Source: an uncultured Candidatus Saccharibacteria bacterium
GTDB taxonomy: Bacteria > Patescibacteriota > Minisyncoccia > Phycocordibacterales > UBA1006
DNA length: 64,000 nt
Direction of reading: 5' to 3'
NCBI GenBank assembly: GCA_964415895.1
Contig: CAYQCC010000002.1
Span: 5,413 to 69,412, forward strand
Each line of letters begins with the position of its first letter. Position 1 is the stretch's first letter. The position numbers were made by a program. Shown piece by piece: positions 15,001-18,000 of the stretch.

Positions 15001-18000
15001 CTTTGTACCTGACCTTTTAGTTTCACGCCTTTTGACCGGTTTAAATGCAGTCGAAATTCTCGTAAAACGTTTTCGTTTATCTGTGAAACATCATCAATCT
15101 TTCCGAACTCAAAAAAAACATCTAGATAATGCTCGTAATTGCGAACCGTGTTCAATGCGCGTCCACGTTCTATTTCTACATATTCTAAAAATTGTCGTTT
15201 TAGATCTTGAACTGTCATAAAATATTTAGTAATTCGGAAGTTTTTTGTTTTCTCAACCTGCGGAACGCAAGCGCCCTCACGCGACTTCGTCGCTGCGGGT
15301 TCGGTCCTCGATTGTTCAAACAATAAAACTTCCTACTTACTTATATTATATCACAATCTTTAATGAGAAGTTTTCAGCGTTTTCTGATATACTTTTTAAT
15401 ATATGATGCCGTCAGCGCAAAAACAACAAGTCAAAACCTCTGGCGGCGCAACTGTGACAACGACGGTTACGACAACCACAGCAGCAGCGGCTCCATCTGC
15501 TAACTTTACTCAGGCAGAACTGGGATCACGAAGTCTCGCGCGCAGTATTGATAAAAAAATGAATGAAATGAATCAGCAGAAATCCGCTTCAAACAACGGT
15601 GTATTGGATCGAGTATTAGCTCGTGAAGCAAAAACTGTTTCGGAAGATACAACATTTGGTTCGACTGCTGTCACTACTGATATTCCATGGCGCATCATGC
15701 AAATAATTAATAAGCATGGAATTCAAGCAACAGACATCATCAGAATGATTCATTTACCTGGTGCAACATATTTTAGTGTTTCGCATATGGTGGATGGCGC
15801 AAAAAAGTACACAACGTTTTCAGTTGATGAAGTTGTCGATGTGCCAGAAGAGGAGGTTGAAGAGTCTGAACTCGAGGAAGTAGAAGAAGTTGCAGAGCCT
15901 GAATCAGTTGTAGAAGAAACTCCTGATTATCCTCCGACTGCAATTCCAAATTTTGGAAATACAAATACGCTTGGAACGATTGGGGTTGCACCTGCGCCTG
16001 CAACGACACCAGTTTCAGAAACGGTTCCTCCTAATCCAGTTGCAACTATTCCCGAAGTTCTTCCAACTGAACCAAAAATAATTATTGCACCGATTGAAAT
16101 TGTTGAACCTGTTAAAGAAATTGTTTCACCAGTGCGTGCTGCATTTGATAATGCGCGATTAGCATCGGCAAAAGAATTTTCCGCATATTATTCTAATCAT
16201 TATAAAGAGCGACAGACAGGAACATTTAATCAGTTGTTCGGAAACAATCAAGAAGTTCATGACACATTGTTCAAGACGATTAATGAATATCAACTTGCAA
16301 AGAAAGATTACTTGAAAGAATTCTCGCAATCGCATCCATCAATCAAATTAAGTATCGAAGAAATTCGTAACGAACAATTACGATTAGCAGATATGTTGTC
16401 GCATCAGAAACATGGAACATTCGCAAAAGTTGCTCATACATTCAAATTAACTATTCCAACTGTTATCGAAACACGCAACAGAATTATTGGAACAGCGGGG
16501 AAGTCTACGCTTGCACCCATTGCAGAACGACTTGGTATTCACGGTTTAACTGATAACGAACCAATCTGGAAAAAATTATTTACAAATAGTAACTCTGAAA
16601 AAAATATACCGATCATTAAAGTTTCGCCAGTGTCTAGTTCTCTGGTCACTACAACCAATCCAAGCATTGTTGAATCGCAAACAGAAGTTGCACCTGTAGT
16701 TCTAAAAAAAGTGAATCGTAAAAAATTGTACGATTCACTACATGGTATGATTTCGAAAGCTTGGAATATTAATCAGCCGAAATTTGTAAATGCTGCACCA
16801 GTCGCGGAACCAGTTTCGATAGTTGTTCAGCCGGTAATCCAACCTGAACCACAACCTGTTGCATCAGTTCCTGTTATCGAGCCTGCAATGCAATTTGTAC
16901 CAGAACCAGTTATTGAAACGATTCCAGTTGCCGAACCTCCTGCAGCTGTAGAGCAACTAGTAGTCACAGTACCTGCGCCATTATCATTTTCGCCAGATAA
17001 CAAACAGCACCCAGAGCATTTATTCAATTAATTTCTGATTTATTTCAGATTATCATTATATGGACGCAACAACCTTTCGCGAATTGTTAATCAAAGAGTT
17101 TAGCTTGGCAGAACTACCTGTCGATGAGCAAACAGAATATGTCGATCAGTTAGGTGAGCTTGTATTACAAGGAGTTTTGATCAAGTCTTTGGCAGCCCTG
17201 GATAATGACCAAGCAGCCCAACTGGAAACCTTTATAGATAGTGGAAAAGAGGTAGAAGAAATTCTTGAATTTCTACAATCATCAATTCCGGGATTTATAG
17301 AGCTTGTAAACGATGAAATAAAGGCAGTACAGGCAGATTTGGCGGCAAGTATGGGTCAAGAAATGTAATAATAACTTATAAAGAAAACCACTGTAATAGT
17401 GGTTTTCTTTATAAAAATAAGGCTTATTTAGGGATAAATTTTGACATATATAATATTATATTGTATATAGGTGACATAGTACTTGACTTATTTCTAGAAA
17501 AGACTATACTACGTGTAGGGTTTTTATGTTTCTAGACCTTAGGGTCTTCAAACGACAAACGTCGTTCACTGTTACACTACTTTTTGTAGGGTAGCAGTTT
17601 TTTTTATTTACTTGGACACTTGACTTTATTTTAGGATCTAGTATACTGTTACTAATAGTACAAATATACATAACACTTTATTGTCTGTTGCGGAGCAAAG
17701 ACGGTTGTTGATTTCATAGTTTTTGATTTTAGGTTATTAATTGTGTTGAGTGATTTGTGTGCTAAGGCTAGTCTCGATCTTGGTTTATCCAGATTGAGAA
17801 CTAGCTTTTTTTATTAAAAATCATGATAAGGTGTAGGTAGAGCTGTTATCAAAGAAATAAGGTTCATGTTTCTCATAGTTGTCTGTCAGGACACAGCTTA
17901 AGGGTCTCGTTCGATTTCTCGACAGGCTTTTTTATTTTGCAAATTTTGGAACGACGACCATGAATGGTATACTCGTACCCATGAATGAATTCGCTTACTT

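Follow-up and report, generated by a model that had tools for sequence, protein, structure and literature searches.

Hairpin elements with a conserved three-way junction and private outer stems, without protein-coding capacity, in genomes of the Candidate Phyla Radiation

We analyzed 64,000 nt of contig CAYQCC010000002.1 (positions 5,413 to 69,412 of the forward strand; assembly GCA_964415895.1), from an uncultured Candidatus Saccharibacteria bacterium. We call this stretch the window. It contains four copies (A to D) of an intergenic hairpin element, about 95–140 bp long across its family, in which a conserved three-way junction caps a long outer stem whose sequence is private to each locus. 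No copy encodes a protein. We gathered about 35 copies from outside the window, all from genomes or metagenomes of the Candidate Phyla Radiation (CPR, or Patescibacteria), and the literature on CPR ribozymes, structured RNAs, and palindromic repeats does not describe the element. This is a genuine CPR-restricted family of protein-less hairpin elements, and it is apparently undescribed. Alignments of orthologous sites show that hairpins come and go whole, together with their stems. We tentatively propose, at a little less than even confidence, that the element is mobile but non-autonomous, working as a folded single strand that a protein encoded elsewhere recognizes.

CPR bacteria account for a large share of bacterial diversity and have tiny, tightly packed genomes, and their non-coding repertoire is little known. 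The element is built the opposite way to repetitive extragenic palindromes (REPs) and miniature inverted-repeat transposable elements (MITEs), and it has repeatedly been gained or lost between housekeeping genes. This would imply either a new mobility mechanism or a new RNA or DNA-protein interaction in the CPR lineage. The family is also a short, concrete object for testing, since it comes with a covariance model, a choice of two strands, and sites known to be empty or filled. It is a possible strain-level marker, and it may help to explain the many short, unexplained inserts in CPR genomes.

A conserved junction on private stems

The outer stem (P1) has 15–37 bp and one or two purine-rich internal loops. 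It is capped by the three-way junction (about 50–60 nt), whose two side arms, P2 and P3, have variable tips. Read on the plus strand, the order is the outer stem, often an internal loop 4–6 bp further in, a helix of 4–6 bp, and an inner loop that is nearly universal (UGC/UC). Next to the junction is a helix of three pairs, GGA/UCC, which covaries to GUA/UAC; its middle pair is G-C in 28 sequences, U-A in 8, and A-U in 2. P2 is CGC-loop-GCG; P3 is CCC-U-CA-C-G, a variable hairpin, and C-UG-C-GGG; and UUCGG forms the return strand from P3 to the stem. Both arms can hold inserts: in P2, a hairpin of 57 nt in L037 and shorter ones in L025 and L049 (L numbers are our labels for sequences from outside the window), and in P3, about 95 nt at L025:5153–5308. 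There are two instances of CUGCGGR paired with YCCUC(AC)G, one in the stem at its inner end and one at the foot of P3, and in each the CUGCGG strand points toward the junction. To judge from the alignment, these two boxes would make a pseudo-two-fold arrangement, of the kind that is bound by dimeric proteins.

Across 38 distinct sequences aligned to the model, 93.9% of the pair cells hold a standard pair, and 16 of the 26 pairs show changes on both sides. None of 500 shuffles matched the observed values, and slid partners were 29–47% paired. An initial annotation of the window had described a conserved core with a covarying inner hairpin and had suggested selection on a folded nucleic acid. 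The core and the covariation are real and hold across the family, and the compensatory changes support the suggestion. Furthermore, on both strands, the predicted folds of the four window copies are all far more stable than those of shuffled sequence (z of -3.7 to -9.3).

The stems are unrelated, as had been noted for the window: in an all-against-all comparison of stems and flanks, nothing is shared between non-orthologous loci. Stems do carry a semi-conserved T-run in the left arm, an A-run in the right arm, and G·A loops. The window's terminators have the opposite polarity, with the A-run on the left and the T-run on the right. These terminators are themselves unusually long perfect palindromes (44953–45002, 48970–49018, 34312–34348, 17376–17414, and 19922–19957), and one is a 50-bp perfect palindrome with zero loop (GAACTAATAATAAAAAAAGCTGCCT/AGGCAGCTTTTTTTATTATTAGTTC).

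We built a covariance model from 22 aligned copies and ran it on both strands of the window with filters off. The only matches were the four copies that had been annotated initially, at the same positions. The fifth-ranked match on either strand scored 12.4 bits (E = 0.75). Similarly, the 11-mer CTGCGGGTTCG occurs exactly three times in the window, while 0.36 occurrences are expected even with one mismatch allowed. The copies are 8.5–21 kb apart, amid housekeeping genes:

15236..15333, minus strand: copy A, whole hairpin; 89.0 bits; outer stem interrupted
15259–15309: copy A, full-type core; plus-strand form TGCGGAACGCAAGCGCCCTCACG-GCGAC/GTCGC hairpin-CTGCGGGTTCGGTCCTC
36273..36373, minus strand: copy D, whole hairpin; 61.2 bits
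36295–36351: copy D, variant core; GUG/UAC replaces GGA/UCC, P2 is longer, and the P3 tip is TCCGC/GCGGA
46248..46339, minus strand: copy C, whole hairpin; 28.7 bits
46277–46309: copy C, core of the minimal subtype; CTGCGTAACGCAAGCGCCC-CAA-GGGTTTCTACTC, with P3 cut to CCC/GGG
54793..54900, minus strand: copy B, whole hairpin; 87.0 bits
54821–54871: copy B, full-type core; 22-bp perfect outer stem

Near-perfect outer repeats of 17–21 bp had been reported for every copy. They are long and clean in B (a perfect 22 bp), D (one mismatch in 22 nt), and C (17 bp perfect, or 23 nt at 91%), but copy A has a weaker repeat, which is perfect for 9 bp before interruptions set in (79% over 24 nt).

Copy C has a short P3 (CCC-CAA-GGG) and a GUA/UAC junction helix. 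It is not a damaged copy: the identical core is found in three other genomes or metagenome contigs (L049:2081–2142, L129, and L131), so this minimal form is a conserved subtype. A single genome can hold full, GUA-type, and minimal copies together (the window, L025, and L049), and the subtypes recur across genomes.

Range of the family

A pattern scan with one genome per species gave 113 loci, most of which are chance matches in high-G+C genomes, without the rest of the core. Those that have both the flanking core and a long inverted repeat of their own are all from metagenome-assembled genomes (MAGs) that are labelled as Paceibacteria or Paceibacterota, Kaiserbacteria, Saccharibacteria, or "uncultured bacterium". 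A stricter scan of metagenomes added 16 copies. The labels are inconsistent: the L6 and L18 proteins of L049 (labelled Saccharibacteria) are 78–81% identical to those of L001 (labelled Paceibacteria). So the taxonomic breadth, which we took from record titles, may be overstated. L017, L025, and L070 are parts of one Paceibacterota MAG. L017 holds an identical copy B, which suggests that it and the window are from the same species.

The core of about 55 nt is almost unchanged from Paceibacteria with 37% G+C to Kaiserbacteria with 55% G+C, although its invariance is overstated because the copies outside the window were fetched by exact-match patterns. Segments that were not forced to match do vary: CCCCCACG in L118, the fully Watson-Crick CCCGCAGG/CCTGCGGG in L120, and CACA in L122. 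Copies of the Kaiserbacteria type have stems of 29–37 bp with zero mismatches.

Gain and loss at orthologous sites

In the window, 126 nt separate a DUF2238-like gene from an MBL/beta-CASP gene, and copy B fills this gap (site B). The site is empty in relatives: L137 (protein 89% identical) has a 6-nt gap, TTTTTT, and in L138 (86% identical) the genes overlap. The arms of copy B resemble neither the empty-site sequence nor the adjoining coding sequence, and we rejected the idea that stems are made by outward extension of a palindrome from the local flanks.

The rplF–rplR gap of the spc operon contains the element in L049, L001, and L118, while it is 3 nt in L134 and L136. (In L049, the copy here is of the full type, and a minimal one lies between rplO and secY; each is on the mRNA strand.) L132:10535–10587, and also L133, has a 53-nt hairpin at this site that lacks the core (ATTCAATTT / AAATTGAAT). 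In the reverse-strand reading it has a GA/GAG loop and a 4-bp tip, and it can be aligned to the outer stem that is seen in filled relatives, as if a deletion at the apex had taken out the junction and left the base of the stem.

At another site, a 2.26-kb stretch of L068 is collinear with L131 in reverse complement (78.8% identity), and the gap that they share has been used twice. It holds a full-type copy in L068 and a minimal-type copy in L131, in the opposite orientation and with unrelated stems. We found no copy in 115 kb from close relatives (six regions of 13–21 kb and two shorter contigs), so the element is dispensable. The initial annotation had named presence or absence in related genomes as a sign of mobility, and empty sites were found at both site B and rplF–rplR.

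Since the empty orthologous sites are gaps of 3–6 nt without a hairpin, the stem arrives together with the core. This bears on an alternative that was raised initially, that hairpins already in place receive a short selfish core in their loops and that the private stems are simply these targets. The L132/L133 hairpin, which matches the outer stem but has no core, could be such a target. Also, an insert of a second family sits in the P3 tip of L025:5153–5308, so hairpin tips in these genomes can take inserts. However, neither site B (6 nt) nor rplF–rplR in L134 and L136 (3 nt) has any hairpin when it is empty, and the L132 hairpin is at least equally well explained by palindrome-mediated deletion of the apex. 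Ordinary hairpins in the window's genome are terminators, whose A-run and T-run are placed opposite to those of the element, and the T-run, A-run, and G·A loops are semi-conserved parts of the stem. The suggestion was therefore right about gain and loss but not about loops, and we consider insertion into loops to be quite improbable. The polarity of the runs likewise led us to reject insertion into terminators.

Which strand folds

The initial annotation read the copies on the plus strand. We set each left arm against its right arm, reverse-complemented (1132 matched positions), and found that transition mismatches are asymmetric: 31 versus 6, or 25 versus 6 without orthologous duplicates. The majority are A·C on the plus strand, which are G·U wobbles on the minus strand, and the 25:6 split is significant (two-sided binomial p ~ 0.001). 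The single mismatch in the 22-nt stem of copy D is of this kind. The bias toward minus-strand wobbles persists where the plus form is in the sense of the mRNA. Deamination biases on coding or leading strands would be expected to give the opposite asymmetry.

Folding energies agree. With RNA parameters, the minus strand is more stable in 26 of 37 copies, by a mean of 2.4 kcal/mol (p = 0.0006); with DNA parameters, the minus strand is more stable in 29 of the 37 and the plus strand in 7 (p = 5e-5).

Internal loops of the stem, in the minus reading, contain 160 purines and 44 pyrimidines. In many copies the outer loop is GA/GA, GAA/GA, GA/GAA, or GAA/GAA and lies 4–6 bp from the inner loop; copy B has GAA/AA, 4 bp away. 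The inner loop is GA opposite G-N-A, and P3 has a G·A mismatch. Reading the plus strand turns these G·A loops and mismatches into pyrimidine-pyrimidine mismatches. On the minus strand, most P3 tips are c-GNA-g triloops (cGAAg, cGCAg, or cGGAg), and several copies contain the heptamer GCGAAGC, which is an exceptionally stable DNA mini-hairpin. Given the wobble asymmetry, the folding energies, the G·A loops, and the triloops, structural selection probably acts on the minus strand, which is the reverse complement of the initial reading.

Structured RNA or regulatory element?

Tandem G·A loops are typical RNA motifs, and a near-invariant junction beside covarying, length-variable helices is typical of ribozymes and of the RNAs of ribonucleoproteins. 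So we also considered that the element might be a structured RNA that is useful to the host: a protein-binding RNA or a new self-cleaving ribozyme, carried in neighboring mRNAs, freed when RNase III cleaves the stem, and spread by duplication or horizontal transfer. This would fit with the lack of degenerate copies, with the retention of the core at the orthologous rplF–rplR site while the stems drifted, and with the location of copies on the mRNA strand inside a ribosomal-protein operon. However, within operons the RNA-like G·A motifs mostly fall on the antisense strand, neither strand has GNRA or UNCG tetraloops, and close relatives lack the element.

Known RNA families do not account for it either. 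At gathering thresholds, Rfam found tRNA-Gly alone in the whole window. With E up to 10, copy A had no match, copy B had a far-sub-threshold match to a miRNA precursor, and the three sequences that we searched (A, B, and one Kaiserbacteria copy) gave generic miRNA-hairpin noise at most. ARAGORN found no tRNA at the copies. The Rfam and tRNA checks that were foreseen for these loci thus gave no known family. By eye, none of hammerhead, twister, pistol, hepatitis delta virus-like, group II domain V, T-arm, or K-turn fits, and the register that would give a K-turn would destroy the covarying 4-bp helix.

Nor do we see a fixed promoter or terminator. Among 37 copies, -10-like hexamers are present on one side in 13 and on the other side in 10, at variable distances, and scans for sigma-70 promoters and terminators gave chance-level counts. 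The T-run sits within the 5' arm; neither strand has one after the 3' arm, and the terminator scan was blank at A, B, and C, so we rejected the idea that the element is an intrinsic terminator. We also rejected an invertible promoter, as the repeats are private, the enclosed segment is only about 50–70 bp, and there is no consistent promoter-like signal.

Orientation relative to genes is mixed. From crude calls of open reading frames at about 30 independent loci, the plus form is sense in about 12 and antisense in 5, and the flanking genes are divergent in 6 and convergent in about 5. Taken together, we think that a host-useful structured RNA is less likely than not, but it is a serious rival, and the main one, to the mobile element that we propose.

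In the window, the neighbors are:

14217–15218, minus strand: XerC-like gene, on one side of copy A
15345..15353, minus strand: extended -10 consensus TGATATAAT, 11 nt before the minus form of copy A (6/6 with TG)
15403–17031, plus strand: uncharacterized gene, on the other side of copy A
34971–36239, minus strand: nusA, on one side of copy D
36431–36925, plus strand: gene on the other side of copy D
45842–46234, minus strand: HIT gene, on one side of copy C
46374–48152, plus strand: recJ, on the other side of copy C
54346–54786: DUF2238-like gene, before copy B, which fills the gap
54913–56295: MBL/beta-CASP gene, after copy B

The flanking genes on the minus strand (XerC-like integrase, NusA, and HIT plus EEP) are those that had been named initially. 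An exact-protein look-up for the gene after copy B found no record.

Three of the four copies are 13–41 nt upstream of minus-strand start codons, and TGATATAAT precedes copy A, so the element could be imagined to serve in cis as a regulatory leader or promoter for the divergent genes beside it (xerC, nusA, and HIT-EEP). But the neighbors are functionally unrelated and vary over about 30 loci, many copies, B among them, are flanked by co-directional or convergent genes, and orthologous genes in relatives lack the element. The link to divergent promoters that was seen in the window does not extend to the family, which occupies co-directional, convergent, and divergent gaps and even the spc operon. 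We consider a cis-regulatory role to be very improbable.

The extended -10 is peculiar to copy A. Because it lies 11 nt before the hairpin, the minus form of copy A would probably be the 5' leader of the xerC-like mRNA; this is another point in favor of a structured RNA.

Long near-perfect duplexes (17–37 bp) are predicted on both strands, including for the copies inside the spc operon. Any transcript across a copy, in either direction, would form a duplex of at least 20 bp and would therefore be a potential substrate for RNase III. Operon-borne copies probably also act as points of mRNA processing or insulation, if the predicted duplexes form.

Comparison with known systems

REPs and their composites (bacterial interspersed mosaic elements, or BIMEs, and REPINs) are also short, protein-less, multi-copy intergenic hairpins. 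They act as folded single strands with a trans-encoded enzyme (RAYT) and have often been exapted for mRNA stability, and the element can be likened to them in these respects. But in REPs the palindrome is the conserved part that is recognized, while in the element the stem is private and the non-palindromic tip, with its three-way junction, is conserved. So the element is not a REP or REPIN. Also, it has no GTAG-type motif, and none of the roughly 60 open reading frames in the window encodes a RAYT (Y1 HUH) protein. Nor does the window encode any other HUH enzyme, a transposase, or a reverse transcriptase. Its sole recombinase is the XerC-like gene that adjoins copy A.

Like MITEs, the element is small and non-autonomous, is present or absent between relatives, and has several subfamilies per genome. 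MITEs, however, have conserved terminal inverted repeats and target-site duplications. The element has neither, so it is not a MITE, as was argued at the outset.

Integron attC sites and the attP(+) site of CTX phage are recombined as folded single strands, with structure mattering over sequence and with a terminal structure of variable length. They have two related protein-binding boxes that are symmetric around an unpaired center, much as we predict for the element, and the element shares their invariant AAC and GTT triplets. In attC, the boxes R''(RYYYAAC) and R'(GTTRRRY) pair with each other, in cassette arrays next to intI. Unlike attC, the element has no cassette array or integrase context, and attC has no counterpart of its long private outer stem. 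We also considered attC-style pairing of AAC with GTT in the element, but this is contradicted by the covariation: the covarying pair is GGA/UCC to GUA/UAC (alignment columns 21–214). By analogy, the element seems to resemble REPs and folded single-strand recombination sites most in how it works.

Short inserts without open reading frames are reported to be common and unexplained in CPR rRNA genes (PMC11270868). These inserts, and the intervening sequences of 23S rRNA, are sporadic, horizontally spread long stem-loops in transcribed DNA. The duplex of an intervening sequence is excised by RNase III, and the element is likewise predicted to place a long duplex in transcribed regions. But intervening sequences lie within rRNA helices and lack a conserved apical junction, whereas the element lies between protein-coding genes.

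Small self-cleaving ribozymes (hammerhead, twister, twister-sister, pistol, and hatchet) share with the element a three-way junction, invariant junction nucleotides, variable stems, and multiple intergenic copies in either orientation. The element differs in having no match even at E of 10, no defining core motif, and a closing stem that is far longer than in natural ribozymes.

Origins of transfer of the MOBQ type have the nick consensus NWACCNNTAAGTGCGCCCTYNN and an inverted repeat that is placed 8 nt to the 5' side of the nick, and they lie beside a relaxase gene (PMC3832669). The plus strand of copy D, GACCGACAAGTG-TCCCTC, agrees with NWACCNNTAAGTGCGCCCTYNN at about 12–13 of 17 specified positions with a 1-nt gap. 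There is no relaxase gene in the window and no correctly spaced repeat, so this is a lead only.

Finally, we considered that the stems might be guides or spacers. We rejected this, as the stems of the window's lineage have no second site in about 1.3 Mb of sequence. Searches of IMG/VR with two stems and the core gave zero matches.

A proposed role as a folded, mobile single strand

We propose that the minus strand of the element folds into a three-way junction on a long private stem, and that the folded form is more likely to be single-stranded DNA than RNA. A trans-encoded and probably dimeric protein would bind the two near-identical boxes (CTGCGGR paired with YCCTC(AC)G on the plus strand), which are placed symmetrically on both sides of the junction. 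Recognition of the boxes would drive the spread and the retention of the element. As a side effect, RNase III would process or insulate operon transcripts that cross a copy.

Our proposal that the element is mobile explains why whole hairpins are gained and lost, why a gap can be reused, why subfamilies coexist, and why the element is indifferent to gene function, depends little on orientation, and has no coding capacity. That the partner is a dimeric protein acting in trans is suggested by the two symmetric boxes. Single-stranded DNA seems the more economical form because the strand signature is independent of the direction of transcription and the triloops are of a DNA type.

Several observations weigh against this proposal. 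The data do not directly separate RNA from DNA, and no partner protein was identified. We saw neither target-site duplications nor conserved termini, in the 12-nt flanks and stem ends of 37 copies or in the filled and empty versions of site B. (The flanks of these 37 copies share no motif outside the stems, either.) No decayed copies were seen, which fits selection on resident copies, and hence a host function, better than pure selfishness. The stems of L001, L118, and L049 at rplF–rplR are alignable, so these copies are probably one old insertion, whose core stayed nearly unchanged while its stems drifted. On the choice of strand, the junction-proximal pair is A-U (25 sequences) or G·U (11) on the plus strand, and those 11 become A·C on the minus strand. 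The plus form is on the locally G-rich strand at 25 of 34 loci (p = 0.009), including all four window copies; this is a bias with exceptions, and it is confounded with gene direction. The better-folding strand is therefore mostly the C-rich, non-coding one, which is not the orientation expected of an IS200/IS605-type element that uses the lagging-strand template.

The lack of decayed copies, the retention of the core at an orthologous site, and the survival of the stem base with its G·A loop in L132 suggest that resident copies are under some selection and hence have a role at the host level. The obvious candidate would be that RNase III processes or insulates transcripts of operons.

We speculate, with limited confidence, that the junction is the substrate or the active center of an undescribed mechanism. 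It could belong to a new class of hairpin transposon, or of folded single-strand recombination site, that is recognized at its center, or else to a new self-cleaving or self-processing RNA that punctuates CPR operon transcripts. Recognition at the center instead of at the ends would account for stems that are private and for the lack of both terminal repeats and target duplications.

Other features of the window and its relatives

The second insert family, which is nested in short form in the P3 tip of the element at L025:5153–5308, is unrelated to it. Its members are structured and intergenic (…TTGTCATTCCRG-loop-CYGGAATCYAGG…), with several hairpins and a long imperfect outer repeat of their own. 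We found it at L134:9461–9609 (the rpsN–rpsH gap), L025:5190–5270, and L078:306–316, and it is absent from the window. In L134 it fills the S14–S8 gap, while L135, which has an identical L6 protein, has an 18-nt gap there.

Upstream of a UvrD/PcrA-like helicase gene, the window has a 510-nt stretch without genes (17369–17878). It contains repeated CTTGACTT(T)ATTT motifs (near 17483 and 17620) and small hairpins (such as 17533–17548), and it may hold promoters or an unannotated small RNA. Three paralogous genes for TrmB-family regulators lie within 6 kb (910–1689, 4095–4865, and 6319–7080). At 49011–53384, as in L137, L138, and L139, ComEC (Competence domain) is followed, in conserved synteny, by a protein of 936 amino acids with a weak match to the TraG/TraD C-terminal domain (DUF8128 in precomputed matches). 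This protein would be a coupling-protein-like ATPase beside a DNA-uptake channel.

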